NCBI GenBank assembly: GCA_019509985.1
Contig: JAEKLF010000037.1
Coordinates: 8,127-72,126 of the forward strand
Direction of reading: 5' to 3'
DNA: 64,000 bases
DNA from: Burkholderiales bacterium
GTDB taxonomy: Bacteria; Pseudomonadota; Gammaproteobacteria; Burkholderiales; Burkholderiaceae_C
This document shows, in pieces, positions 51,244-64,000 of the stretch. The notes beneath the pieces were generated by a model that was given only the letters and a program-made list of their open reading frames with translations, ran no database searches and was not told the origin of the DNA. The translations under genes and the position numbers were made by a program. Each line of letters starts with the position of its first letter. Position 1 is the stretch's first letter.

Positions 51244-51318
51244 GCCCCGTTGGACTTCCGGTGAGGTCCTCGGCCCTTCAAGCCGAAGAGGCGGGTTCAA
51301 CTCCCGCACGGGGCACCA
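51244..51318 (+). tRNA. tRNA-Glu(TTC)-like, atypical C33
   Basis: GCCCCGT/ACGGGGC acceptor, GAC/GTC D stem, TCGGC-CCTTCAA-GCCGA anticodon arm, 4-nt variable loop, GCGGG-TTCAACT-CCCGC, encoded CCA. Confidence 0.8.
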
Positions 51319-51422
51319 GACCCTTCAACCCGAAGTCCCTCGTTGAGCTCACGCCCCGAGGGACGCAAACCGGCCGCAACGATTGGGCGGCGTCGGAACC
51401 CGTCACCGACAACCTTTCCCGT

Positions 51423-51499
51423 CCGGGCGTAGCTCAGCCAGGTAGAGCATCTGCTTTGGGAGCAGAGGGTCGCACGTTCAACTCGTGTCACCCGGACCA
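51423..51499 (+). tRNA. tRNA-Pro(TGG)
   Basis: TAGCTCAGCCAGGTAGAGC D arm, TCTGC-TTTGGGA-GCAGA, GCACG-TTCAACT-CGTGT, ACCA end; one C:A mismatch in the acceptor stem. Confidence 0.88.
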
Positions 51500-51509
51500 A
51501 CCATTTCAT

Positions 51510-51585
51510 GTCGCCATAGCTCAGCTGGGAGAGCGCCGGTCTGTCGAACCGGAGGTCGCGGGATCGAGGCCCGCTGGCGGCGCCA
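51510..51585 (+). tRNA. tRNA-Asp(GTC), atypical T loop
   Basis: GTCGCCA/TGGCGGC acceptor, CCGGT-CTGTCGA-ACCGG, T loop ATCGAGG instead of TTCRANY, GCCA end. Confidence 0.82.
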
Positions 51586-51692
51586 CATTTTTCTCCTGCG
51601 TGTTGTGCCACGTAGCCGTCCGGCTGCGCACCCGCATGCAACAGTCGGAGCACCGCTCCATCCACCGTGCCAGCCCAGGAAAGGAGGTCACC

Positions 51693-52253
51693 ATGCACGA
51701 CGTTTTGCAGTTGGACATCACCGGCCTTCCGCAGGCCTGGATCTCGGTGGAGGACGCCGCCGGCCTCGTGGCCACCGACTCGGTGGTCTGGTCAGCCGGC
51801 GAGCGGCCACTGGCCGTGCTGCGGGGCGGCTTCAACACCGTTACCGGCCGCCAGTCGATGCTGGAGGTGCCGCCCATCGTGGCCCTGCGCGGCGTGTCGA
51901 GGATAAACCTCTTCGACCTGACGCCGACCTTCAGCAAGCTCAAGGTCATCAAGCGTGACCGTTGCACCTGCGCCTATTGCGGCGACGTGTTCGACCTGCG
52001 TTCACTGACCGTGGACCACATCCAGCCCGACAGCCGCGGTGGGTCCTTAAGCTGGATGAACACGGTCGCGGCCTGCCGCAGCTGCAACATGCTGAAGGCC
52101 GACCGCACGCCGGACGAGGCCCGCATGCCGCTGCTGTTCGCGCCGTTCGTGCCCAGCCGCTTCGAGGACTTCATCCTCAAGGGCCGGCACATCCGCGCGG
52201 ACGTGCACGACTGGCTGGCTGCGCGCCTGCCGAAAGGATCTCGCCTCAGCTGA
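51693..52253 (+). CDS. HNH endonuclease
   Basis: AGGAGG RBS; RDRCTCAYCG...TVDHIQPDSRGG...WMNTVAACRSCNMLKADR. Confidence 0.92.
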   Translation: MHDVLQLDITGLPQAWISVEDAAGLVATDSVVWSAGERPLAVLRGGFNTVTGRQSMLEVPPIVALRGVSRINLFDLTPTFSKLKVIKRDRCTCAYCGDVFDLRSLTVDHIQPDSRGGSLSWMNTVAACRSCNMLKADRTPDEARMPLLFAPFVPSRFEDFILKGRHIRADVHDWLAARLPKGSRLS

Positions 52254-52383
52254 GGCGACAACGAATCTGCCGAGGAAAGCAGAGCGCTCACAGGTCGGGG
52301 TTTCGAAGCCCCACCGGTGCGCCAGGACCGGGTCCGCCCGTCGTCTCGGCGTATGCCGCCCCTGCCGGAATCGACGGATAGCC

Positions 52384-52438
52384 CGTGAGGCAAGGTTGAG
52401 CCGCAAGGCATTGGGTTCGATTCCCAACTTCACGACCA
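52384..52438 (+). ncRNA. tRNA-like mini-RNA (acceptor stem + T arm + CCA, no anticodon arm)
   Basis: CGTGAGG/CTTCACG 7-bp stem, A-CCA, TTGGG-TTCGATT-CCCAA, GCC-GCAA-GGC hairpin in place of the D and anticodon arms. Confidence 0.6.
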
Positions 52439-52439
52439 C

Positions 52440-52506
52440 TGGATAGCTCAGTCGGGTAGAGCAACGAACTAGTAGTTCGTCTGTCGCGGGTTCGACTCCC
52501 GCTCCA
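52440..52506 (+). pseudogene. Pseudo-tRNA (anticodon AGT) with broken acceptor stem and no CCA
   Basis: GCTC-AGTCGGGTA-GAGC, ACGAA-CTAGTAG-TTCGT, GCGGG-TTCGACT-CCCGC; only 4 acceptor pairs (TGGA/TCCA). Confidence 0.65.
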
Positions 52507-52772
52507 AAGCTTGGCCTTGAACGCCAATCCAAAACCGGTCGCAAGACCACCCGCCGAACGTGCGCCCCGGCCTTGGCCGGACCCGCGCATCAGCGGCCCG
52601 CGCTCGCGCGCCGGGCAAGCGGGGCTCTGCAACCACGGCCAGCCGAGAGCGTCTTCAGGGAGGAGGCGCTCGACGCGCACCGTGGCGCCAGGCCCTGGCA
52701 TCCGACGTCCGCACGGGTTGCTGTAACGGCACCCTCATCCCCATCACCACGCGTCACCACAAGGAGAACACC

Positions 52773-54750: not shown

Positions 54751-55014
54751 ATGGAACCCCAACACATCCACGAAGACGTCCCCGGCGGCGTGCCACTGAA
54801 GATGTGGACGCAAGGCGTGCCAGTCGAAGACTCGGCCAAGCGCCAGCTGCAGAACGCGGCCCGCCTGCCCATCGTCTTCAAGCACATCGCCGCGATGCCC
54901 GACGTGCACTTCGGCATCGGCGCCACCGTCGGCTCGGTCATCCCCACCGTCAAGGCCATCATCCCGGCTGCGGTCGGTGTGGACATCGGCTGTTCTTCCG
55001 ACATCCACTTGTAA
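54751..55014 (+). pseudogene. rtcB: RtcB RNA ligase, 5' fragment interrupted at the DIGC motif
   Basis: LPIVFKHIAAMPDVHFGIGATVGSVIP...IIPAAVGVDIGC, then unrelated SSDIHL*; no rtcB remainder found in the window. Confidence 0.9.
54979..55008. other. Candidate recombinase core/attachment site (left junction)
   Basis: GTGGACATCGG-CTGTTCTT-CCGACATCCAC: 11-bp imperfect inverted arms (9/11) around an 8-bp spacer, exactly at the rtcB breakpoint. Confidence 0.6.
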
Positions 55015-55118
55015 CCCCATCCCGAAGCATGTAGGCTCCGCCCCCGAACAACGGGAACGAGTAGCCCCAGCCTCTTTTAGAGGCGAGTAGCCCTCCGCCC
55101 CACCGAGCAGGAGGAAGG

Positions 55119-55430
55119 GTGGCCATTCAGCGCAGATCGTTCGGAGTTGCCGTATTGGAGCGGCTGCGGGCCACCGCATGCACCACGGCCTTCGGGCGGT
55201 TGGATGGCCACTTCAAGCGCGATTCAACGTTCATCCCAACAAAGGACCCCAACACTGAGCGGTGGCACTGTTCCACCTCAAAGGGTGAGTGCGAGCTGCT
55301 GGTCAATGGCCCAAAGTGGTACGACACCAGAACCCGGGAGGGTGGAGGTGGCTCGATTGATCTAGCGATGCAGTTGTACCGACTCGACTTCGTCGATGCG
55401 GTGAACCTCTTGGTGGGCAGGGGCCTATGA
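55119..55430 (+). CDS. Small conserved-looking protein, first gene of the recombinase module
   Basis: AGGAGG RBS before GTG; KWYDTR..GGGGSIDLAMQL...DFVDAVNLL recalls the primase zinc-binding-domain tail; ATGA overlap with the next gene. Confidence 0.6.
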   Translation: MAIQRRSFGVAVLERLRATACTTAFGRLDGHFKRDSTFIPTKDPNTERWHCSTSKGECELLVNGPKWYDTRTREGGGGSIDLAMQLYRLDFVDAVNLLVGRGL

Positions 55431-56611
55431 ACCTCTACTTCAGCACCAAGGACTTTGCAGTCGACGGTCAGCACTACGAAGGCTTCCCGATTCTCGTGGA
55501 CGCCTCGGGTGCAGTTGTTGAGGTCGCCCTGCTCTTCTTCGTGGACGACCTCCTCAACCGCGGTGGCGCGCGAGACCTGAAAACGTGGGCTGCCTATGGC
55601 CGGCACATGTACGACTACTTCGGCTACCTGGAGCAGCGTCTGGCCTGGGATCACATCCCAGCTGAGGGTAGTGGACAGCTCTCACCACTAGCTGCCTACG
55701 TGCGATGGTGCGACACCGACGTCCGCAATGCTCCTGGCTACGTCAACGACAAGCGCGCGACCATCGAGCGCTTCTACGAATGGGCAAAGCGGGTCGGGCG
55801 CATTGATGAGCTGCCCTTCACCCGAAGTGAAGTCATTTCATCTAGCGCTGATGGGGTGCTTGCGCACGCCTCGGCAACTCGAGGCCGACGGTCGGCGTCC
55901 AACCTGCATCTGCCTGAGAACGACGACGACGTGCCAGACATGGTGCTGTCGCGTGGCCAGATCGACGCAGCGTTTGAACACGCGACGAATCCAACGCACC
56001 GTGCCGTCCTGCACCTGAGCCTGAATGCCGGGCTGAGAGCGGAGGAGCTCGCGACGTTCCCGATGAAGTACGTCGTCGACACCAGCAGGCTATCGCCCAA
56101 GGTGAAGACGGTGCCCGTGACCCTTGATCCGAAGGACATGCACACCAAGAACGACAAGAAGCGAACAGTGCGACTGTCGGTGCGGTGCATGAACCTGCTC
56201 TGGCAGTATCGAGAGGCCGTTAGGCCACGACTGAGGGCTCGGGCGAAGGGAGGCCCCGCCGACAGCGGAGTGCTGCTCCTGACCCGGTTTGGCGTGCCAT
56301 TCGTCGCCGACGGCTTCGTGTCACCCATGGCGCGCCTAGGGAAGCGTGCTGGATTCCACATCCACCCGCACATGCTCAGGCATACGTTTGCCACCCATAC
56401 GCTAGCCTCCCTCGAGGACTTGAAGCGTGCCGGCAGGCTCAGGAGCTCGCCGCTCGTGGTTCTCAAGCGTCTTCTGGGCCATTCGAAGACAACCAACACA
56501 GAACGCTACCTGCATCTGCTGGATTCAATCGAGGACGTCTACGGCACCCGCTACCAAGCGGAGATTGACGAGTTGGCGCTGGGGTATCTGAACGAGGCAG
56601 AGAAGAAGTAG
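55427..56611 (+). CDS. Tyrosine recombinase 1
   Basis: NAGLRAEEL (R), HPHMLRHTFA (HxxR), LLGHSK (H), TERYLH (Y). Confidence 0.92.
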   Translation: MNLYFSTKDFAVDGQHYEGFPILVDASGAVVEVALLFFVDDLLNRGGARDLKTWAAYGRHMYDYFGYLEQRLAWDHIPAEGSGQLSPLAAYVRWCDTDVRNAPGYVNDKRATIERFYEWAKRVGRIDELPFTRSEVISSSADGVLAHASATRGRRSASNLHLPENDDDVPDMVLSRGQIDAAFEHATNPTHRAVLHLSLNAGLRAEELATFPMKYVVDTSRLSPKVKTVPVTLDPKDMHTKNDKKRTVRLSVRCMNLLWQYREAVRPRLRARAKGGPADSGVLLLTRFGVPFVADGFVSPMARLGKRAGFHIHPHMLRHTFATHTLASLEDLKRAGRLRSSPLVVLKRLLGHSKTTNTERYLHLLDSIEDVYGTRYQAEIDELALGYLNEAEKK

Positions 56612-58219
56612 ATGGCGAAGAAGAAGGACTTCGGGGTCGGAGGGCCGCCACCGAAGCCGGTGATCCCCATTTTCCCGACGAGTAGGACGCTCGAACGTGC
56701 GGCCGTGAGCGCTCTCGTGATCCCGCTACCTCATGGCGTCGACGCGGAGTTCGATTGGTGGGAGTACCTCGGGCATGGGTTCGATGACACGGTGTCGGCT
56801 ATCACGTTGGAGATGCGCGCCATGGTTGCGCGCGGCAGACCGAAGCCCTTGGCCTTGAAAACCATCGCCAACGGCGGCGTGATTCACTGGTTCAGGTTCT
56901 GCGTTGAGCGCGCCTCTGCGGGCACACCACCGACGTTGGACAGCATCAACGCCGAGACGATTGAGGTCTTTGCCGGTTGGCTCGCGACCCGTTTGAAGCC
57001 CGACGGCGAGCTGTGGTCGTTGAACACTGCGCGGACGGTCTACCAGAAGGTCAAGACCGTGCTGGAGGCACTTGCAGATCGCAAACTGCTGCCAAGGGAT
57101 GGGCTGTTTCCTAAGAACCCTTTCCCGGGGGCCACTGACATCAACCGGCGCCGCAACCACATACTGCCTCTGTCTGATGGCGAACGAGAGCGCATCCTCC
57201 GCCCGCTGGCGATGCAGGTTGCCCAGGTGTACGACGGCACCCACCCCGGCACACCGTCGACGCAATTGGGGCTGTGCGTCTTTGCCATCTTCTTGAAGAC
57301 CGGCGTCAACCCCACCCCGTTCCTCGAAATCCCTCGGGACCTGCAGAAGTGCTTCATGAGTCATCCGCGCGTGAACACGAGGATTCTGGTGACCTTCAAG
57401 CGCCGGGCGAACAAGCGCACCAAGACGCCGCTGGAGCCTGAGTCTCGGGTGGTGTCGCTGGACGTCTATAAGCTCTGTGAGCGCGTTCTGGGCCTCACCG
57501 AGGGTGCGGCCAAGCTGGCGGTTGGCACGAAGCTGGAGGGCTTGCTGTGGGTCTACGAGCTCGATGGTGCACCCCGTGGCATGACGACCGAGACGCTGAG
57601 CGCCGTCGCCAACGCATTCACGTCGCGTCACGCCCTTGTGCGCGACGACGGCACCCGCCTGAAGATGAGCAGCCAGCTCTTCCGCAACACCAAGCTCAAT
57701 CGCGTCTGGCGAGCGTCCAAGGGCGACCTGCTCGCAACGGCGCGAAGCGGATCGAACACGCCGACTGCCGCTCAGCGATACCTCGCAGTCACTCCCGACA
57801 TGCTCGACGAACATCGCATGGCAGGCGAGGTGCTGGTGGACACCCTGTCGGCTGCCGGCCCGAGGGACAACACGCCGCACAGCGGCTGCAAGGATGCCTT
57901 CAACGGCGAGTTCGCGCCGAAGGACGGCTCGCCTTGTGTCGACTTCCTCTCGTGCTTCCGATGCAAGTCTCAGGTCATCATCCAGGACGACCTCTACAAG
58001 CTGTTCTCGTTCTATTGGGCGCTGTTTTCGCAGCGGAGCCACATTGGCCAAGACAACTGGCGCAAGCTCTTCGGCTGGGTCACGAGGGTGATTGACCGCG
58101 ACATCGCGCCGAAGTTCGATGCGACGGTCGTGGAACGAGAGAGGGCTCGCGCCCGCTCCGAACCACACCCGATGTGGCGGTCTCCGTCGGTCTTAGCTGC
58201 ACTGAGGTCCATCCAATGA
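56612..58219 (+). CDS. Tyrosine-recombinase-fold protein 2 with degenerate catalytic residues
   Basis: KTGVNPT (N at the usual R), QLFRNT, GSNTPTAAQRYL; C-terminal Cys cluster CKD..C..FLSCFRC; starts directly after the upstream stop. Confidence 0.7.
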   Translation: MAKKKDFGVGGPPPKPVIPIFPTSRTLERAAVSALVIPLPHGVDAEFDWWEYLGHGFDDTVSAITLEMRAMVARGRPKPLALKTIANGGVIHWFRFCVERASAGTPPTLDSINAETIEVFAGWLATRLKPDGELWSLNTARTVYQKVKTVLEALADRKLLPRDGLFPKNPFPGATDINRRRNHILPLSDGERERILRPLAMQVAQVYDGTHPGTPSTQLGLCVFAIFLKTGVNPTPFLEIPRDLQKCFMSHPRVNTRILVTFKRRANKRTKTPLEPESRVVSLDVYKLCERVLGLTEGAAKLAVGTKLEGLLWVYELDGAPRGMTTETLSAVANAFTSRHALVRDDGTRLKMSSQLFRNTKLNRVWRASKGDLLATARSGSNTPTAAQRYLAVTPDMLDEHRMAGEVLVDTLSAAGPRDNTPHSGCKDAFNGEFAPKDGSPCVDFLSCFRCKSQVIIQDDLYKLFSFYWALFSQRSHIGQDNWRKLFGWVTRVIDRDIAPKFDATVVERERARARSEPHPMWRSPSVLAALRSIQ

Positions 58220-60099
58220 GCGCTGCCCTGGCCTATGAGCTACATGCGGCTGCGTTGGAGCTGTCGCCGGCGGAGCGAGACGACCTCGTCATCTCGTACG
58301 TTCAGCTGGCGGGCGGCGAGCGCATTCCGCTCTCTCGCTACGGTGACCCCGTCTGGAACTACACGCCATTCTTCCCCGGCGCAGCCCGCGGCAAGCAGGA
58401 CAAGGAGATTGTCTGGGCCAAGACTCCTGACGAGTGGGTTCCGTCGATGCGAAGCGCAGCCGCTGCGCTCACATACCGCAAAGCTCCTGGCGGTGTCCGA
58501 CTGGACCCGTCGACGATCCCCAAACGGCACGTCATCCTGAATGCCTTCGCGAAGTGGGCCAGCTCAGAAGGCATCAGGCGCTTCGGCGACGTCCGCGCTG
58601 CCGACTTGACCAGGTACATCCAGAAGCTTCGCGACGACGGTCTCTACGACCGTAGCCTGGCCAGCCACATTGCCATCCTGCGCAAGGTACACGAGCTTCG
58701 GGGAGCAATGCTCGACAGCTTGACCGACGAAGCTGCGACCGCGCTGCGGTTTGACCAGCTCGGCGCGCTCTGGGAGCCTGACGCGGTCAACGACCGCCGT
58801 ACTGAGCTCATCCCGCTCGCTGAGGCGTCAGCATTGTTCGTGGCCGCCAGAGAGCACCTGACCAGGGCACCAACCCTACTGCGTCTGCGTGACGACCTGG
58901 CTGAACAGTGGGAGGCCGCAAAGGTCACCTGGGACCGGAGGGTATGGGGTGACGACGTCAAGAAGCCGGCGGTGCGAGCTGCTGGCTTCCGAGACGCCCT
59001 TGAGTTCGAGTCCGCCGTCAGTGACATCCGGACTGCGGCCTACATCGTCCTCGGCATCACCACGGGTTGCCGCGTCCATGAGCTTGGCGAGGCGGAGGTG
59101 GGCTGCGTCTATCCGGACACGGTCGACGGTGAGACGTATTGGTGGCTGAAGGCCGCGACGCGCAAGATCGGCGACGGACCGATGCGTTGGCTGGCACCTG
59201 AAGTGGCCAAAGAGGCCTCCGACGCCCTCGAATGGCACTCTGCCCCCTTGCGAGCCCGCATCGCCGCTGAGCTGCCTGTCATGCGAGAGCAGTTCACAAC
59301 CGCAACCACAGAAGCGGAAAGAGCCAGGCTGGCGGCGCATATTCTTGAGCTTGAGCGCAATGCCGACCGCTTGTTCCTGAGCGAGTCGACGCGGGGCGTT
59401 GTCTCAACCGACACCAAGTCGCACAACAAGCAACTAAAGGCCTTCGCTGCACGCAAGGGCATCAAGCTCGGCGTGCCGCTTGCCACCCACCGGTTCCGCC
59501 GCACCTACGCCGTTATCGTCGTGCATCTGAACAAGGGGCCGCGCATCGACATGGTGACGCTGCAGCGCCACTTCAAGCACGCGAGCGTGCTCATGACGGA
59601 GTGGTACGCCGAGCTGTCCGAGACCGACAGGGAGCTCTACGAGCTCATCGAGACGGAGACAGGCTTCTTCGACATGGCGCTGGTCGACCACTGGCTGGAT
59701 GGATCGACGCCGCTGGCCGGCGGCCTGGGTGCCCGAATCAAGGCGTACGCAGGCAAGCATCACCAGCCCATCTTCTTCAAGACCCGGCGCGAGTTCGTTG
59801 ACAGCATCCGGGAGGGCATCAACATCCGGAGCACAGGGCACAGCTGGTGCCTGGCAGAGGCGAAGGACTGTGGCGGGCAAGGGCTTTTCGATGCTCCCCA
59901 GTGCGGCAGTTGCGGCAACGGCGTCATCGACGACAACTTCCGAGAGGTGTGGCAGAACCTTCGTCAGGACCACGAGGACTTGTCCAAGCTCGACGACATT
60001 GGGCCTGGCGGCAGGGCAAAGGCGGCGAAGGGCCTCGCAGCGGCCGAAGCCGTCCTCGCACAGCTTGAACAACCTGACGACGAGACCGCCGATGTCTGA
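58216..60099 (+). CDS. Tyrosine recombinase 3
   Basis: TTGCRVHEL, THRFRRTYA, HFKHASVLMTEWYA; C-terminal Cys cluster; ATGA overlap with the previous gene. Confidence 0.88.
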   Translation: MSAALAYELHAAALELSPAERDDLVISYVQLAGGERIPLSRYGDPVWNYTPFFPGAARGKQDKEIVWAKTPDEWVPSMRSAAAALTYRKAPGGVRLDPSTIPKRHVILNAFAKWASSEGIRRFGDVRAADLTRYIQKLRDDGLYDRSLASHIAILRKVHELRGAMLDSLTDEAATALRFDQLGALWEPDAVNDRRTELIPLAEASALFVAAREHLTRAPTLLRLRDDLAEQWEAAKVTWDRRVWGDDVKKPAVRAAGFRDALEFESAVSDIRTAAYIVLGITTGCRVHELGEAEVGCVYPDTVDGETYWWLKAATRKIGDGPMRWLAPEVAKEASDALEWHSAPLRARIAAELPVMREQFTTATTEAERARLAAHILELERNADRLFLSESTRGVVSTDTKSHNKQLKAFAARKGIKLGVPLATHRFRRTYAVIVVHLNKGPRIDMVTLQRHFKHASVLMTEWYAELSETDRELYELIETETGFFDMALVDHWLDGSTPLAGGLGARIKAYAGKHHQPIFFKTRREFVDSIREGINIRSTGHSWCLAEAKDCGGQGLFDAPQCGSCGNGVIDDNFREVWQNLRQDHEDLSKLDDIGPGGRAKAAKGLAAAEAVLAQLEQPDDETADV

Positions 60100-60505
60100 A
60101 GAGCTCACCACCCGGAAGAAGCTGACCCTGGCGTTCGCCAGGCTAAAGCGAGATGCCGCCAAGGCCGGGAAGCCTGGCCCGTCTATCAGCGCCGTTGCTC
60201 GCGAAGCCGGCGTCAGTCACACCCTCGTTCACACCAAGTACCCGGACATCGCTGACCAAATTCGCGAGGTGAGCGGCCGTGGGCCCAAACAACAGCTAGA
60301 AAAGCAGCGCACCGCGGCGAAGCGGTCCGAGGACCGAGCTGCGGAACTGCGCGCGGAGCTTGCGGACCTGAAGGTCCAAAACCGAGGACTCGCAAGTGAG
60401 AACGCGCGCCTCCTTCTGCTCGTACAAAGCCTAGAACAAAAAGTCACTGCCCTTCAGTCTGGCTCCAAGGTTGTGCAGTTGAAGCCGATGCGCCGTCCAA
60501 ATTAG
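60092..60505 (+). CDS. HTH + coiled-coil accessory protein (TnpC/DUF6262-like)
   Basis: SISAVAREAGVSHTLVHTKYP HTH followed by a heptad coiled coil; 8-nt overlap with recombinase 3. Confidence 0.7.
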   Translation: MSEELTTRKKLTLAFARLKRDAAKAGKPGPSISAVAREAGVSHTLVHTKYPDIADQIREVSGRGPKQQLEKQRTAAKRSEDRAAELRAELADLKVQNRGLASENARLLLLVQSLEQKVTALQSGSKVVQLKPMRRPN

Positions 60506-60553: not shown

Positions 60554-62313
60554 GTGGTTTTGAGGTCCTATGCGTATCCCATGCCGCGCCCGACTAGCTC
60601 GCTCGGCTCAAGGCGAGCCGATTACCGGCTCAGCGCCTGCGACGGTGCTGGTCCTGCGATGGAAACCGGAGTGGGTGGCGCCGCAATCGCGATGTGGCTG
60701 GTGCTCGGCAACTTGACAGCAGTCTCCGGCTCAACTTCTTCGAAGCCGAACAGGCCCTGCGGGATGCTGCGTTTGCTGAGTGGGTTGATAACCGCATCGG
60801 GGAACGCCATCGGCGCCTGCAGGAAGTGCTGATCGACCACCTTCCGCAATGAAGGGTCCTTGACCAAGCCGACCAGGTGGTCGATGTCAGCGGCGTAAAG
60901 CACCTCGATGAAGTAGCCCTTCCCAGCCGCCCGCTCCTGGGCCACTGCAACCATGGCCCTGGCTTCCGTGCTCAACTCGCCGGTCACCCAGAGTTCGAAT
61001 CGAAGGTCGAGCTTGGACAGCTCGTTGTTCTTGCGTGTCTGTGAGAGGACGACCGGCAGGCGCTTGTTCAGCCATTTGTCGACCTCGTCGTCGCTGAGCA
61101 GGTTGCCAGGCACTAGGCCCTTGCACTCGATGAACCGGATGTAGCGGTTCTTGACGATGACCCGTACATCGACCTCCGCCACGTCCTTGCCGCCCTCACG
61201 ATAAATCTTATTGAGGGTGATGTCCGCCGGCGGCTCAAGTACGCGAACGACTTCCGCCACGACGAACTCGAAGAGGGCCCCTCGCAGGGTGCCCGCCGCA
61301 CCTTCCGCCTTGCCCAAGCGCTCGAACAGCTGGCTGAACAGGACCGGGTCGACAGCCTTTTCCGCCGCCTGACTCAGGGTCCTGAGCAACTCCAGCAGAG
61401 CCTTGGCCACGTCGGTCCCAAACAGAGATTCGGGCGTCGCTGGAACGATGCCCGCCCTACGGATGAGGTCCAGCGCACCTGGCGAATAGCGGTTGGCGAC
61501 GAAGAACTGCAAGCAACGGCCCATCCCACGGAACTGCCGCAGCGTGGCGCACTTGTAGAGAAACGGGCTGACGTCGTCGACACCCACCACCTCGGTCATG
61601 AGCACGTCGATGACAAGGAAGCCGGGCTTAGGCTTCGCCGAGCTTGACCAGTCAGCCAGCGGGCCGAGGAAGGATGGCGCGGACAAGTCCCAGCTGAACG
61701 CGCCGACCAACGGGGCCGTCCCCGTCCTGTCAGCCCTCAGCTTGAACGAGTTGAAGCTGCCGAGTCCGAGCTTGGCTGCCCACTCCTGGATCGACTGCAA
61801 GAGCACCCTCTCGGCGATGAGCCGAGCACGAACTGCGGGATAGCGGTCGTCAAGGTATGAATCGCCACGGGCGAATGCCACGCAGGGCCCGACGCCGGGC
61901 ATCTCAACCATTTGCAGCAACTCCGCATCCACGAGCCGCTTGACGACTTCATCGCTGGAAATCTGCCGCTGCCCATCTGATGTGCCTGCAGCCGCCGAGA
62001 AGTGCATGGCCGGAACGATCCCGCCCCGGGCAGTGAGCGCCTTGATGGCACGGGCATACGCACCGTTTCCATCCATCAGGGCCGCGGCCAGGCGATCCCA
62101 GAACTTCGGGCTGCCGTACTGGCTTTCGAGGTACAGGAACTGGGCGCCACGCGGAAGCACCAGATTCACTGCACGGACCGACAACGTGCGTCGCTCGATG
62201 CGCTTGCGAGCAGCCGCGGGCGTGATGTTCAGCTTGGCTGCCAACGCTGCGGCCAGAGAACCACTGGTCATCGGACCATTGGCGGCTAAGAGGGCTGCTA
62301 TCTCGACGCTCAC
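60554..62313 (-). CDS. Cargo protein: N-terminal HTH-like region plus PD-(D/E)xK nuclease-like domain
   Basis: NITPAAARKRIER; AEVDVRV...FIECKG near the C-terminus; GTG start. Confidence 0.6.
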
Positions 62314-62325
62314 ATGTCCACCTTG

Positions 62326-62519
62326 CCGGATGTCACACAGCGCTATTTATAACCGGTACTGATATATGCCTCGGCACGTTTTTTTCGCCAAGGCAGAGAA
62401 GCGCCTTAACAAAATCAACAACTTAGCAGATGGCAACGGACCTCGGATGACATGCCCGATGTCACACTCGTCGTCGGGAGACGTTCCGTATCGTACTGAT
62501 CTGTACTGAGCACGATACG
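62326..62519. promoter_or_regulatory. AT-richer control/recombination region with IHF site and repeats
   Basis: AATCAACAACTTA (62413-62425) matches the IHF consensus; CC(G/C)GATGTCACAC at 62326 and 62455; CGTATCGT-N17-ACGATACG at 62487-62519. Confidence 0.5.
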
Positions 62520-62799
62520 AATACAGTATCAAACGGGCTTGCTTGCGATGCCGGCCGGCCAGTCTGGACCGGCACCCTGTCGACGCTTTAGTTCAGGTTG
62601 AAAGCCGCATCATCAGTTGGCCCAGTCGGACCGCCGCCCTCAGGCTCACGGTCGATGCCGCACAGGAGAGCCGGACAAGCGTGTCGTCTCCGCACCGACC
62701 GAAGTCCTTCCCGGGCGTCAGCGCGACCCTGGCAGGGGCAGGCCGATGCGCTCAAGACCAGCGAGCACCAGCTCCCGGCGGGCCGCGAACTCCTCTCGT

Positions 62800-63531
62800 C
62801 TAACTGCCATTGCCCAATCGCAGCGGATGGTCGGCGGGTAGCGCTGCAACACACGTTGCGAGCTTGCCCTCTAGCTCGGCGACCAGCGGCTCCAGGTGCG
62901 CTACGACCAGTTGGGGAGAGTTCAGCACTTCTGGGAAGACCCACGATGACGCCGCCCGGGACATGTAGTCGGCTTCGAACGGGTAGACGCCCCTGAAAGC
63001 CTTCAGGATGGTGTTTTCCGCGAGCTTGATGACGGCATCGCCCGAGTATCCAAATTCCCCGACATCAGGCCGTAAGCCGTGCTCGATGCGGAGGGACTTC
63101 GGAAGCTCCCAGTAGGTGGCTCTGCATTTCTGCGCCCGGTCATTGAGCTCGGCGAGCCGCATGGCGATGACCTCGGCGCTCGCCGCGGCTTCAGACTCGG
63201 CCAGGGACTGCAGATGGACGTTGGTGAGCGCTGCGGCCTCCTTCGCACCGATCTGGAAGCCACTCTCGGACAGCAGCATGCCCCGGTCAGCGCCGGTGTC
63301 GGCGACTATCTCGCGCAGGGCGAGTACGTGTAGCTTGTTCACCGGGCTCTGCCAGCACTTGCACTCGACGATCCAGGTCACCTCGAAGCCCACATGGTGC
63401 GACTTCACGAGCACGTCGACGTCGTGCTTCGTTCTGGCGCCCTGCACCGTAACGTCAGTTTGTGCATCCATCCCCAGCGACCGAAAGAAGGCCGCAGCTT
63501 CCTCTTGATAGTCCTGCCACGCAGCAGCCAT
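62800..63531 (-). CDS. Mrr-like restriction endonuclease
   Basis: WQDYQEEAAAFFRSLG, HDVDVLV, WIVECKCW, GADRGMLLSESGFQIGA. Confidence 0.82.
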   Translation of the reverse strand: MAAAWQDYQEEAAAFFRSLGMDAQTDVTVQGARTKHDVDVLVKSHHVGFEVTWIVECKCWQSPVNKLHVLALREIVADTGADRGMLLSESGFQIGAKEAAALTNVHLQSLAESEAAASAEVIAMRLAELNDRAQKCRATYWELPKSLRIEHGLRPDVGEFGYSGDAVIKLAENTILKAFRGVYPFEADYMSRAASSWVFPEVLNSPQLVVAHLEPLVAELEGKLATCVAALPADHPLRLGNGS

Positions 63532-63775
63532 GTGTCGCCCTCAAGCTGTATAGAACCGGATGCTACGAGACCGCCTGCTAGAGTCAGCCTTGAAGCCGGC
63601 GTTGCCGGCTTTCCTGCTTTTCCTCCCTGAGCAGGAGCTTCGGCTCGATGACAGCGACGAGGCTTTGCCGCCCCGGCATGTCCGGGGCGTTCTTTTTGGC
63701 CGACGCGCGGCCCGAGAAGCTGGCCTCCGCATGCCGCTTAACAGCCGTGTTACATTTTTCCTAGGGGGGAGAAAA

Positions 63776-64000
63776 TTGGTATACGTCGACGATGCCGATG
63801 TGCCTAAATACGGTCGTGGCTGGTGCCATTTGACGGCGGACAGCCTTGGTGAGCTTCATGCCTTCGCAGCTCGCATTGGCCTACCTGCCCGCGCCTTCCA
63901 TCGCGGCGCGCGCCACCCCCACTACGACATCACAGCCGACCAGCGGCTGAACGCCCTGCGCAGCGGAGCGCATCCCGTCAGCCCTCGAGAGGTCGTGCGC
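63776..64000 (+). CDS. DUF4031-like protein, 3'-truncated by window edge (absent from ORF track)
   Basis: GGGGGAGA RBS then TTG; VYVDD...WCHLTADSLGELHAFAARIGL...HPHYDIT. Confidence 0.75.
   Translation, partial: MVYVDDADVPKYGRGWCHLTADSLGELHAFAARIGLPARAFHRGARHPHYDITADQRLNALRSGAHPVSPREVVR

Follow-up and report, generated by a model that had tools for sequence, protein, structure and literature searches.

The stretch of DNA analysed here (64,000 nt, hereafter the window) contains five co-oriented open reading frames between positions 55119 and 60505. The sequence-only reading had described them as a coupled module with ATGA, zero-gap, ATGA, and 8-nt junctions, and both its coordinates and its junctions proved correct. 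The genes, named after the counterparts to which they are assigned below, are as follows.

55119–55430, plus strand: ORF103, 103 aa; GTG start, with AGGAGG 5–11 nt upstream
55427–56611, plus strand: intA (rec1), 394 aa
56612–58219, plus strand: tfp (rec2), 535 aa
58216–60099, plus strand: intB (rec3), 627 aa counted from ATG
60092–60505, plus strand: srap (HTH/coiled-coil), 137 aa counted from ATG

The listed ORF of intB is longer and reaches a GTG at 58174. As read from the sequence, ORF103 and intA overlap by 4 nt (CTATGA), intA and tfp adjoin with zero gap (TAGATG), tfp and intB overlap by 4 nt (CAATGA), and intB and srap overlap by 8 nt (ATGTCTGA). This arrangement is far beyond chance, because the order intA-tfp-intB-srap is kept in all 83 related loci fetched and in 39 of 84 loci a homologue of ORF103 immediately precedes intA. 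The 4-nt overlap of ORF103 with intA recurs in 27 of the 40 loci in which the two ORFs could be delimited.

Conservation of catalytic residues was assessed over 73–79 homologous loci, and the residues listed here are kept in at least 90% of them. In IntA these are R204, K241, H315-x-x-R318, H352, and Y361; the protein matches PF00589 at 2.6e-15, could be aligned with XerA, and judging by its sequence is a tyrosine recombinase of ordinary size with a complete active site. In IntB, R286, K317, H425-x-x-R428, H455, and Y464 are conserved, together with the C-terminal cysteines C545, C552, and C566. Its matches to PF00589 and to SAM-like domains are both weak, and the conserved residues mark it as a large tyrosine recombinase whose active site is complete and which has an extended N-terminal region as well as a Cys cluster at the C-terminal end. 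The R-HxxR-H-Y signature previously noted in the first and third recombinases is confirmed, and in both proteins it extends to R-K-HxxR-H-Y.

Tfp gave no Pfam match and no sequence match in the PDB, but its AF2 model matches Tn1549 Int, XerH, and Cre with a probability of 1.0, and hhalign relates it to IntB at 97%. Its conserved residues in the same loci are N233, K263, Q355, R358, and Y390, with N233 aligned to R286 and Q355 to H425 of IntB, along with a cluster of four cysteines (CCCC; C426, C442, C448, and C451). The resulting pattern N-K-Q-R-N-Y is devoid of the first Arg and both His, while the Lys, the second Arg, and the Tyr are invariant. Tfp is a degenerate paralogue of IntB with a tyrosine-recombinase fold, as the earlier observation of Asn in place of Arg, no His, and a retained Tyr had indicated; the C-terminal Cys clusters reported for the second and third proteins are likewise present. 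Tfp is probably a DNA-binding or architectural subunit. It could, perhaps, be other than inert: in the manner of Flp, its Lys-Arg-Tyr might contribute to an active site that is shared and assembled in trans, and such a contribution might itself account for strand bias.

Srap has weak HTH and coiled-coil matches and a TetR-like N-terminal HTH, and RefSeq homologues at the srap position carry a TetR family annotation; no DUF6262 or TnpC-type Pfam match was obtained at E up to 0.1. By homology it would be a small auxiliary factor of the HTH/coiled-coil type, corresponding to TnpC and GinD.

Tfp and Srap are the markers that define SEs, strand-biased circularizing integrative elements (Idola et al.). 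In tblastn, the Tfp of the window matched inside tfp orthologue CDSs listed by these authors (Additional file 3; NC_022739.1, NZ_AP015030.1, NZ_CP033067.1, and NZ_CP050314.1) at E values from 3e-47 to 6e-54. Each of the four profiles matches solely its own counterpart in the experimentally validated SE-Pda04Ya311 of pAQU1 (IntA 7.8e-18, Tfp 9.3e-14, IntB 3.7e-26, and Srap 4e-8). Pairwise BLAST against the validated SE is weak for Tfp and IntB (4e-5 to 8e-5, at very low identity) and gave no match for Srap. The knock-out of intA, intB, or srap abolishes SE recombination, and tfp could not be deleted (PMC10214605).

Genes 2–5 each have a counterpart in the SE core that agrees in order, size, motifs, and sequence, and the proposal of a distinct or little-studied family does not hold: on homology, the element belongs to the SE family already described rather than to a new one. 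We regard it as likely that the module is an SE-family recombination operon at the left end of an element of about 19.4 kb. The idea of a multi-subunit tyrosine recombinase with one degenerate subunit, site-specific for a protein-coding gene, stands without the distinctness attached to it. That reading had weighed RIT, Tn554, and Gamma-Mobile-Trio and had missed the two best-fitting families, SE (intA-tfp-intB-srap) and GInt (ginABCD).

Whether the element is instead a GInt, a sister family with three integrases that is reported from Betaproteobacteria (2.5% of replicons), can be judged from the same profiles. The logic is similar: two recombinases are catalytic, one lacks the first Arg, and a small protein has a coiled coil. 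Genes are targets of GInts as well, and with some of these islands no empty site remains (PMC5385486). The IntA profile also matches GinA of E. coli Sakai at 9.8e-10. However, the Tfp, IntB, and Srap profiles found no GinB, GinC, or GinD of E. coli Sakai at E below 10 while finding their SE counterparts, and Tfp directly matches published SE tfp orthologues. The degenerate protein is the third in GInt (401, 437, 543, and 132 aa in Sakai) and the second here, and none of five betaproteobacterial plasmid accessions queried occurs in the accessible portion of the GInt list. A GInt identity is, in our estimate, quite improbable.

Together the five genes form the recombination operon at the left end of a mobile island of about 19.4 kb (element length ~19,372 bp), of which only the left 9 kb lies inside the window. 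The features to the left of the operon are as follows.

54751–54992, plus strand: 5' fragment of rtcB, residues 1–81, ending GVDIGC; Pfam RtcB 1.6e-17, NCBIfam RtcB families
54987–54992, plus strand: target hexamer CGGCTG, the crossover or "fingerprint" hexamer of the SE model, adjoining the left terminus; junctions of four lineages compared
54993–55015, plus strand: left terminus TTCTTCCGACATCCACTTGTAAC, the equivalent of motif C, starting TTCTTCCGACAT
55016–55118, plus strand: left arm, with CGAGTAGCCC twice around the palindrome AGCCTCTTTTAGAGGC, and CTCCGCCCC twice

The insertion interrupts rtcB, an RNA ligase gene, at GVDIG-C|GM, in the codon for the catalytic cysteine, and the same site is used in four lineages. 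This codon also serves as the site of an RtcB intein. The rtcB reading frame runs on into the element as SSDIHL and stops at 55014, and homology to intact rtcB alleles of the same metagenomes stops exactly at 54992, where their loose ends continue as CGGCATG. The SE and GInt papers that we examined do not list rtcB among the targets of SEs.

Four lineages whose Tfp identity ranges from 66 to 100% have the same left junction, nucleotide for nucleotide. The neighbouring rtcB codons differ among the window, the relatives L004 and L212, and Comamonas thiooxydans, but the left terminus is conserved in all of them. With the right terminus of relatives (reverse complement TTCTTACTACAT...) it forms an imperfect inverted repeat, agreeing at 10 of the first 12 bases with the reverse complement of that terminus in L005 and L006; no long inverted copy of the left end was found in the window or in L004. 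The attR of L005 and L006 reads ...ATGTAGTAAGAA|CGG(C/T)TG|CGGCATG, followed by the rest of rtcB. For the window element, the right end was located through an 87% match between the contig end and L006, which does not fix it base by base; the hexamer CGGCTG follows the right terminus, and the final 30 nt of a 19,432-bp contig begin at it. In the left arm, the ATGTAG motif also occurs at the right terminus of relatives, and a sigma-70 consensus was not found; the arm is a putative promoter or accessory-site region.

In the SE model, recombination of attL with attR gives a circle derived from a single strand and leaves no empty site; the 6 bp of attB adjoin C in attL, and the 6 bp of the donor left flank adjoin C' in attR. 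The presence of CGGCTG on both sides of our element fits an ordinary 6-bp duplication or overlap equally well, because donor and recipient are the same rtcB sequence.

The 19,432-bp unitig was assembled in three runs, starting 30 nt before attL and stopping 30 nt past the right terminus. In two of four soil metagenome runs the element has about half the depth of its flanks, and assembled contigs with intact-rtcB continuations coexist with the occupied allele. These observations bear on the possibility that the locus no longer moves and is an inactive remnant in rtcB, where a fossil recombinase cluster has become fixed. Several relatives are visibly decayed: C. thiooxydans has an IS between intA and the left end, a Paraburkholderia has one between intA and tfp, L005 and L006 have a truncated intA and have lost the left end, and ORF103 is degraded in L004. 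The window, however, has five intact ORFs with all conserved residues and both termini, the element is polymorphic in the population, and the identical unitig recurs in three samples, all of which makes a remnant extremely improbable.

The flanking gene order matches that of Comamonas thiooxydans, and G+C falls from 0.71 in the host to 0.62 in the element, up to the window end. The host is a high-G+C betaproteobacterium, and related elements occur in genera of the Burkholderiales and Rhodocyclales type, e.g., Dechloromonas. GTDB places orders of these types inside Gammaproteobacteria. The 2023 SE survey reported zero Tfp or Srap homologues in NCBI Betaproteobacteria. A G+C below that of the host is usual for SEs (PMC10214605).

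Downstream of srap lies the cargo, which reaches about position 74,364, beyond the window.

60622–64000, no strand assigned: start of the cargo
60622–62313, minus strand: uncharacterised protein, 563 aa
62800–63531, minus strand: Mrr_cat nuclease
63560 onward, plus strand: DUF4031 gene, 5' part

No replacement copy of rtcB was present among the Pfam annotations of the cargo, and no conjugation genes were found in the portions of the element examined.

Four of the five genes map onto a characterised family, whereas the fifth, ORF103, is without a counterpart in the described SE core. It is a conserved, clade-specific component translationally coupled to intA, present in 36 of 44 loci of the betaproteobacterial clades and in none of the 32 gammaproteobacterial ones, and its family comprises 434 representatives. 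The domain is also found fused to Replicase+PriCT_1 (prim-pol) and to RPA replication initiators. The AF2 model has a pLDDT of 88. Weak matches to a PADLOC RTasDnaG-like model (5e-4) and, as the top BFVD Foldseek match, to a "Zinc finger, CHC2-type" protein (E 0.03, probability 0.98), together with an hhalign score of 84% over 41 columns against the E. coli DnaG N-terminus (an approximate query), hint at a fold like that of the primase zinc-binding domain. The zinc ligands are missing throughout this Cys-less family; Foldseek against the PDB returned nothing for ORF103, and none of 16 family members had a Pfam match.

ORF103 is also one of the grounds for considering a separate third family ("beta-SE"), with five core genes and SE ancestry but a different way of moving, for example ordinary excision and integration or an element-encoded replication step. 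The window clade and a large betaproteobacterial clade cluster apart from the gammaproteobacterial SE cluster at 27–35% Tfp identity, but published SEs are equally divergent (20–27% identity between SE-6283 and SE-6945). The termini begin TTCTTCC and are without the TAC...GTA ends of published SEs, yet four core proteins that correspond one to one, termini that are inverted imperfectly, and a 6-bp hexamer at each junction fit the SE scheme. In the metagenomes an empty-site allele occurs beside the element; excision could equally have produced it, which would be unlike an SE, although a never-invaded strain is its simpler source. Overall, we consider a separate family improbable and retain the assignment to SEs.

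By analogy with SE-6283, SE-6945, and SE-Pda04Ya311, an SE of this kind would move as follows. IntA and IntB would be the two catalytic tyrosine recombinases of a complex through which attL and attR exchange one strand only. Copy-out, with the strand bias of the homologues, would follow and yield a nicked double-stranded circle that takes along 6 bp of the left flank, and the circle would re-insert site-specifically into GTGGACATCGGCTG^CGGCATG, which encodes the RtcB motif VDIGCGM. As a putative small DNA-binding domain, ORF103 may aid end recognition or a replicative step (priming or initiation). More specifically, and only tentatively, it might, as a free-standing version of the domain that is elsewhere joined to prim-pol replicases and RPA plasmid initiators, serve as an element-encoded replication adaptor that binds the single-stranded or nicked intermediate of one-strand exchange and recruits priming or initiation, a proposal that we find possible but doubtful. 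If true, it would fill the missing step of SE copy-out/copy-in, from the recombinase product to the replicated double-stranded circle.

Among known systems, Gamma-Mobile-Trio (GmtY, GmtZ, and GmtX; Mahata et al., bioRxiv 10.1101/2023.03.28.534373) resembles the element in being a tyrosine recombinase module of several genes at one end of a cargo island, in having a small third protein that binds DNA, in its intragenic or intergenic insertion via a circle, and in its defence-type cargo. By its description it is set apart by having three genes (a recombinase, a Phage_integr_2 integrase, and an StbA-like protein) and no equivalent of Tfp or ORF103. [quoted passage not shown] The Tn554 family (tnpA, tnpB, and tnpC) resembles it in target specificity with a 6-bp footprint that passes from the left flank of the donor to the new right junction (PMC10214605). 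Its hosts are Firmicutes (Staphylococcus, Enterococcus), and membership was rejected by gene architecture, as Tn554 lacks both ORF103 and a third protein of the recombinase fold comparable to Tfp.

GInts (Bardaji et al. 2017) come closer, with a 5'-terminal set of four recombination genes, a small TnpC-related protein with a coiled coil, site-specific and often intragenic insertion, and hosts that include Betaproteobacteria; the second gene product, however, has only ~437 aa, and the third gene encodes the degenerate recombinase.

With the SEs (SE-6283/Tn6283, SE-6945, SE-Pda04Ya311, and SE-PaeBT2436; Nonaka et al. 2018, 2022; Idola et al. 2023), the element shares a left-end operon intA-tfp-intB-srap with overlapping stop and start codons, an ordinary-sized IntA and a large IntB that are both RHRY, a Tfp with the recombinase fold and an incomplete motif, and a Srap combining a TetR-like domain with a coiled coil. 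Further likenesses are the imperfect inverted-repeat termini (motifs C and C') with a 6-bp hexamer at the junctions, few specific insertion sites that are often intragenic (bcp for SE-6283), a length within the SE range of 6–58 kb, and the lowered G+C. It differs in its betaproteobacterial host, Gammaproteobacteria being a reported but non-defining property of SEs; in a Tfp below the 550-aa cut-off of the 2023 survey; in termini of the form TTCTTCC.../...GGAAGAA-like rather than TAC.../...GTA; and in a target that has no replacement copy in the cargo, unlike SE-6283 with bcp. Relative to published SEs, the new features are the many betaproteobacterial hosts, the rtcB target, a conserved fifth gene with a domain linked to replication initiators, and the invariant Lys, Arg, and Tyr of Tfp.

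[quoted passage not shown] The five plus-strand ORFs of the sequence-only reading were recovered as listed here, together with the way in which it had joined them: CTATGA (4-nt overlap), TAG/ATG (zero gap), CAATGA (4-nt overlap), and ATGTCTGA (8-nt overlap), in gene order.

Genes of the operon in the window (coordinates, strand, description).
55119–55430, +, ORF103; GTG start with AGGAGG ahead
55427–56611, +, 394-aa recombinase (IntA); clear Phage_integrase member (2.6e-15)
56612–58219, +, 535-aa protein (Tfp); recombinase fold predicted by AlphaFold2 model
58216–60099, +, 627-aa recombinase (IntB); weak Phage_integrase member
60092–60505, +, 137-aa protein (Srap); weak HTH and coiled-coil noise only

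The two RHRY recombinases of characterised SEs are IntA, of ordinary size, and the large IntB; Tfp, named a "tyrosine recombinase fold protein", is described as lacking the RHRY motif, and Srap, the "recombination auxiliary protein", is small and TetR-like with a coiled coil (Idola et al. 2023, PMC10214605). Knock-out of intA, intB, or srap, each on its own, abolishes attL × attR recombination, that is, recombination between the left and right element junctions, and translational coupling among the core genes has been noted (PMC10214605).

The assignment rests on three results. A tblastn search of the window Tfp against 72,556 plasmids returned 152 records, and four of the matches fall within CDSs given as tfp orthologues in Additional file 3 of PMC10214605 (NC_022739.1 17763–19247, NZ_AP015030.1 374765–376273, NZ_CP033067.1, and NZ_CP050314.1), with E from 3e-47 to 6e-54, ~30% identity, and ~90% coverage. 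Profile HMMs built from related loci were run against the four proteins of SE-Pda04Ya311 (pAQU1), for which strand-biased recombination has been shown experimentally, and every profile matched its counterpart and no other protein (IntA 7.8e-18, Tfp 9.3e-14, IntB 3.7e-26, Srap 4e-8). The third result concerns GInt, an island with the genes ginABCD. Of the GinA–D proteins of the E. coli O157 Sakai GInt (401, 437, 543, and 132 aa), the same profiles matched GinA alone, at 9.8e-10, and gave no match to GinB, GinC, or GinD; moreover, GInt has its degenerate recombinase in third place, the window operon in second. On both grounds a GInt identity was rejected, and, by gene architecture, a RIT, Tn554, or GMT module was rejected in favour of the SE core operon. 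The sequence-only reading had proposed a "distinct or little-studied family" and HMM and structure searches as the check; a distinct family is not supported, and "little-studied" is a fair description.

The active-site states of the proteins were taken from alignments of 73–79 homologues per protein, drawn from related loci. IntA conserves R204, K241, H315-x-x-R318, H352, and Y361, and IntB conserves R286, K317, H425-x-x-R428, H455, and Y464 together with C545, C552, and C566, which bears out the R-HxxR-H-Y motif read in proteins 1 and 3. In Tfp the conserved residues are N233, K263, R358, and Y390, followed by C426, C442, C448, and C451. Profile–profile alignment makes Tfp a paralogue of IntB (97% probability, 413 columns) and pairs N233 with R286, Q355 with H425, R358 with R428, and Y390 with Y464; the Cys clusters also coincide. 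The earlier description of protein 2, with Asn for Arg, the His residues lost, and the Tyr kept, and of Cys clusters in proteins 2 and 3, therefore agrees with the alignments.

Searches of Pfam, NCBIfam, PHROGs, and PADLOC gave no match for Tfp and nothing beyond the weak noise for Srap, and PDB sequence searches gave no match for Tfp or IntB. The AlphaFold2 model of Tfp (pLDDT 76) resembles the Tn1549 integrase, XerH, XerA, Cre, and IntI (probability 1.0, ~360 columns), so that the recombinase fold claimed for protein 2 is upheld at the level of the predicted structure. Tfp is a degenerate duplicate of IntB and most likely has a role in DNA binding or architecture. It should be noted that, apart from both His residues and the first Arg, which has become Asn, the motif is retained, and that the Lys, second Arg, and Tyr are 100% conserved in 76 aligned loci of the beta and gamma clades; for this reason Tfp should not be assumed to be inert, and a residual or trans-acting catalytic role is conceivable.

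At 55 kb the G+C content drops from ~0.71 to ~0.62, and it does not recover before the window ends. Comparison of the junction across lineages (the window; L004, a Burkholderiaceae MAG with a Tfp 70% identical to that of the window; L212, a soil contig, 85%; and three Comamonas thiooxydans assemblies, 66%) places the element boundary between 54992 and 54993, because the host codons at the junction differ (GGCTG vs. AACTG) while the following bases, TTCTTCCGACAT..ACTTGTAAC, are conserved and form the left terminus. In the comparison loci L005 and L006 the right junction reads ...GTAAC.GTTA..ATGTAGTAAGAA / CGG(C/T)TG / CGGCATG..., with CGGTTG as the hexamer in the L005 type, and the two termini form an imperfect inverted repeat (TTCTTCCGACAT vs. 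the reverse complement TTCTTACTACAT).

The hexamer CGGCTG ahead of the left terminus (54987–54992) recurs after the right terminus, and we expect the right junction of the window's element to be ATGTAGTAAGAA-like, followed by CGGCTG and CGGCATGATCGC. Published SEs likewise have imperfect inverted termini and a 6-bp hexamer at each junction. Judged by sequence, identical hexamers at both junctions fit the SE footprint rule and a simple duplication equally well.

A 19,432-bp Logan contig (SRR9952756_122264), found in three runs, begins exactly 30 nt (k−1) before 54993, and its last 55 nt align to the right junction of L006, ending 30 nt past the terminus. Since the contig overshoots each terminus by 30 nt, the element is estimated at about 19,372 bp, from 54993 to ~74,364, with the right end placed by the contig-end alignment and the left 9 kb alone inside the window. 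Neither the window nor L004, both of which end short of the right end, holds the 27-nt left end in inverted form (≤7 mismatches), and when the left arm was searched blindly against the sequence downstream of srap for inverted repeats of 18 nt, in all loci, chance-like pairs were the only outcome. The pair GTGGACATC...GACATCCAC at attL was considered as a core-type inverted repeat and rejected, as it is not conserved in C. thiooxydans.

Within the left arm (55029–55101), direct repeats of CGAGTAGCCC (55058, 55084) flank the palindrome AGCCTCTTTTAGAGGC, CTCCGCCCC is present twice (55036, 55093), and the ATGTAG motif (55031) recurs at the extreme right terminus of relatives. These features are conserved in L212 and are candidate accessory binding sites; a promoter/terminator scan of the left arm found none.

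The element is directly preceded by codons 1–81 of rtcB (Pfam RtcB 1.6e-17), ending ...GVDIGC, and a full-length RtcB query located the 3' part of the gene (residues 83–408) downstream of L005 and L006. The insertion point (54987–54995) is the codon for the catalytic Cys of GVDIGCGM; alignment of an intact RtcB to the NCBIfam model NF052663 (intein-containing RtcB) places the intein of that family between G81 and C82, that is, at the same codon. The insertion truncates RtcB after residue 81, and no replacement rtcB was found among the annotated cargo genes.

Contigs from four soil metagenome runs match rtcB to 54992 and continue into CGGCATGAT..., an intact rtcB encoding GCGM. Element and flank depths are 65.6 vs. 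139.9 and 41.6 vs. 88.2 in two of these runs, about half, and roughly equal in the other two; because of the halved depth, the insertion is polymorphic in the population. A metagenome scan for empty sites (>119 intact rtcB loci) showed the 23-mer around the insertion site to be highly conserved; among the matches listed, none came from the window's species, and the top one reached 92% identity over 259 nt. A scan with the rtcB 3' flank from a loose-end consensus gave 0 matches, and alignment of contigs to a foreign rtcB (L172) was uninformative, as dozens of rtcB alleles stack up there. Different elements sit on the rtcB catalytic Cys codon, which is also the intein codon. This is a clean case in which selfish DNA has converged on a coding motif that does not vary, and the conserved site offers a portable attB (empty target) for host-range experiments.

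The components and their active-site states, both junction structures, the repeated use of the site, and its polymorphic occupancy are observed directly; the order of assembly, strand exchange, copy-out, and re-insertion we infer from homologous SEs that have been characterised. The four core proteins, IntA, IntB, Tfp, and Srap, would assemble on both element ends and exchange the top strand alone. Copy-out would then yield a nicked circle of double-stranded DNA with the left-flank hexamer, and the circle would re-insert at GTGGACATCGGCTG^CGGCATG.

ORF103 is a real gene outside the published SE core. In 39 of 84 loci a homologue with 36–56% identity immediately precedes intA, and the 4-nt overlap with intA occurs in 27 of the 40 loci where both ORFs can be delimited. 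With loci grouped by Tfp, 36/44 members of the large betaproteobacterial cluster have ORF103, against 0/32 of the gammaproteobacterial (classical SE) cluster. In the small cluster to which the window belongs, the window, L212, and 16 metagenomic homologues have an intact ORF103; in copies bearing other damage it is lost or degraded. The possibility that the domain is fused within the longer pAQU1 IntA (545 aa) was rejected, there being no HMM match.

The invariant motifs of ORF103 are K-x-D, P-x-K, R-W, E-L-L-V-x-G-x-K-W-Y-D-T, G-G-G-G-x-I-D-L-x-M, and F-V-x-A-V. An exhaustive HMMER search found 434 family members among 1.84 billion representatives, most of them 100–130 aa long. Some domains are fused C-terminally to Replicase (PF03090) + PriCT_1 prim-pol proteins, some N-terminally to RPA plasmid replication initiators (PF10134), and some C-terminally to ~750-aa HTH proteins, one with a weak RepB_primase match. 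Weak indications of the fold all lie in one direction: ORF103 matches PADLOC RTasDnaG-like (5e-4) and the DnaG zinc-binding domain with an hhalign value of 84%; the top BFVD match of its model (pLDDT 88) is a "CHC2-type zinc finger" protein (probability 0.98, E 0.03), with no match by PDB Foldseek or Pfam.

The zinc ligands are absent from ORF103, and we tentatively regard it as a Cys-less, primase-ZBD-like DNA-binding module tied to replication initiation. It may serve the replicative step of SEs, a step which the SE literature itself marks as unexplained (PMC10214605), a hypothesis to which we give a low probability. The occurrence of the domain on replication initiators gives a testable handle on how SEs replicate out of the chromosome.

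The cargo (60622–64000 and beyond) comprises a 563-aa unknown protein, an Mrr_cat nuclease (weak PADLOC PDC-S02 match), a DUF4031 protein, a thymidylate-synthase-like protein, aGPT-Pplase3/ADDT, and an M78-peptidase/HTH protein, and looks like a DNA-modification or defence cassette. In L206 (GCA_027484825.1) most of it (Mrr_cat, ThyA-like, aGPT-Pplase3/ADDT, M78) adjoins gyrB-dnaN-dnaA without SE genes, from which it follows that the cassette moves independently of the SE; a 93%-identical homologue of the M78 peptidase lies in the same cassette without any SE. An Rfam match to the Burkholderia "anti-hemB" sRNA (63611–63697, +; 56.1 bits, gathering score 49.5) sits within the 5' part of the DUF4031 ORF (63560 onward); it could reflect conserved coding sequence of a mobile gene rather than an sRNA, or the cargo may include an sRNA. 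On the host side, a tRNA cluster (51244–52510; Glu-TTC, Pro-TGG, Asp-GTC, Thr-AGT) with an HNH endonuclease gene lies ~3 kb upstream of the element. The flank may itself be a variable region, since its G+C is 0.66–0.67 already from ~50 kb.

SEs are a recently recognised class of mobile DNA. The 2023 survey reported Tfp and Srap homologues to be absent from Beta- and Alphaproteobacteria and excluded Tfp proteins of <550 aa (PMC10214605). We found Tfp homologues with the full operon to be widespread in Betaproteobacteria, including Paraburkholderia, Cupriavidus (among them pMOL28 of strain CH34), Comamonas, Rhodoferax, Polaromonas, Dechloromonas, Nitrosomonas, and others. The same set of four proteins occurs commonly among members of this class from soil and fresh water, on chromosomes as well as plasmids.

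The classic Cupriavidus metallidurans CH34 heavy-metal plasmid pMOL28 (NC_007972.2 98748–103933) carries a complete intA-tfp-intB-srap with a Tfp 29% identical to that of the window and no ORF103 homologue; its three recombinase-fold genes are all annotated merely as "tyrosine-type recombinase/integrase". The related Comamonas thiooxydans elements (L208–L210, e.g., AP026738.1 3110855–3132471) occupy the same rtcB site, carry chromate resistance (ChrB, ChrA, Fe-SOD), and have a DDE_Tnp_1-type IS between the left terminus and intA, at the expected place of ORF103. In the Vibrio alginolyticus IncC plasmid pVb1796 (NZ_MH113855.1 86814–91840), a class 1-type integron integrase and a blaVMB-1/dfrA1/blaCARB cassette array directly follow the SE core operon, which suggests an SE carrying an integron.

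Full-text literature searches returned no paper on SEs of Betaproteobacteria, on rtcB as a target, or on any gene resembling ORF103. Taken together, the four-protein core was already known, and what is new here is the betaproteobacterial SEs, the rtcB target, and the fifth gene.
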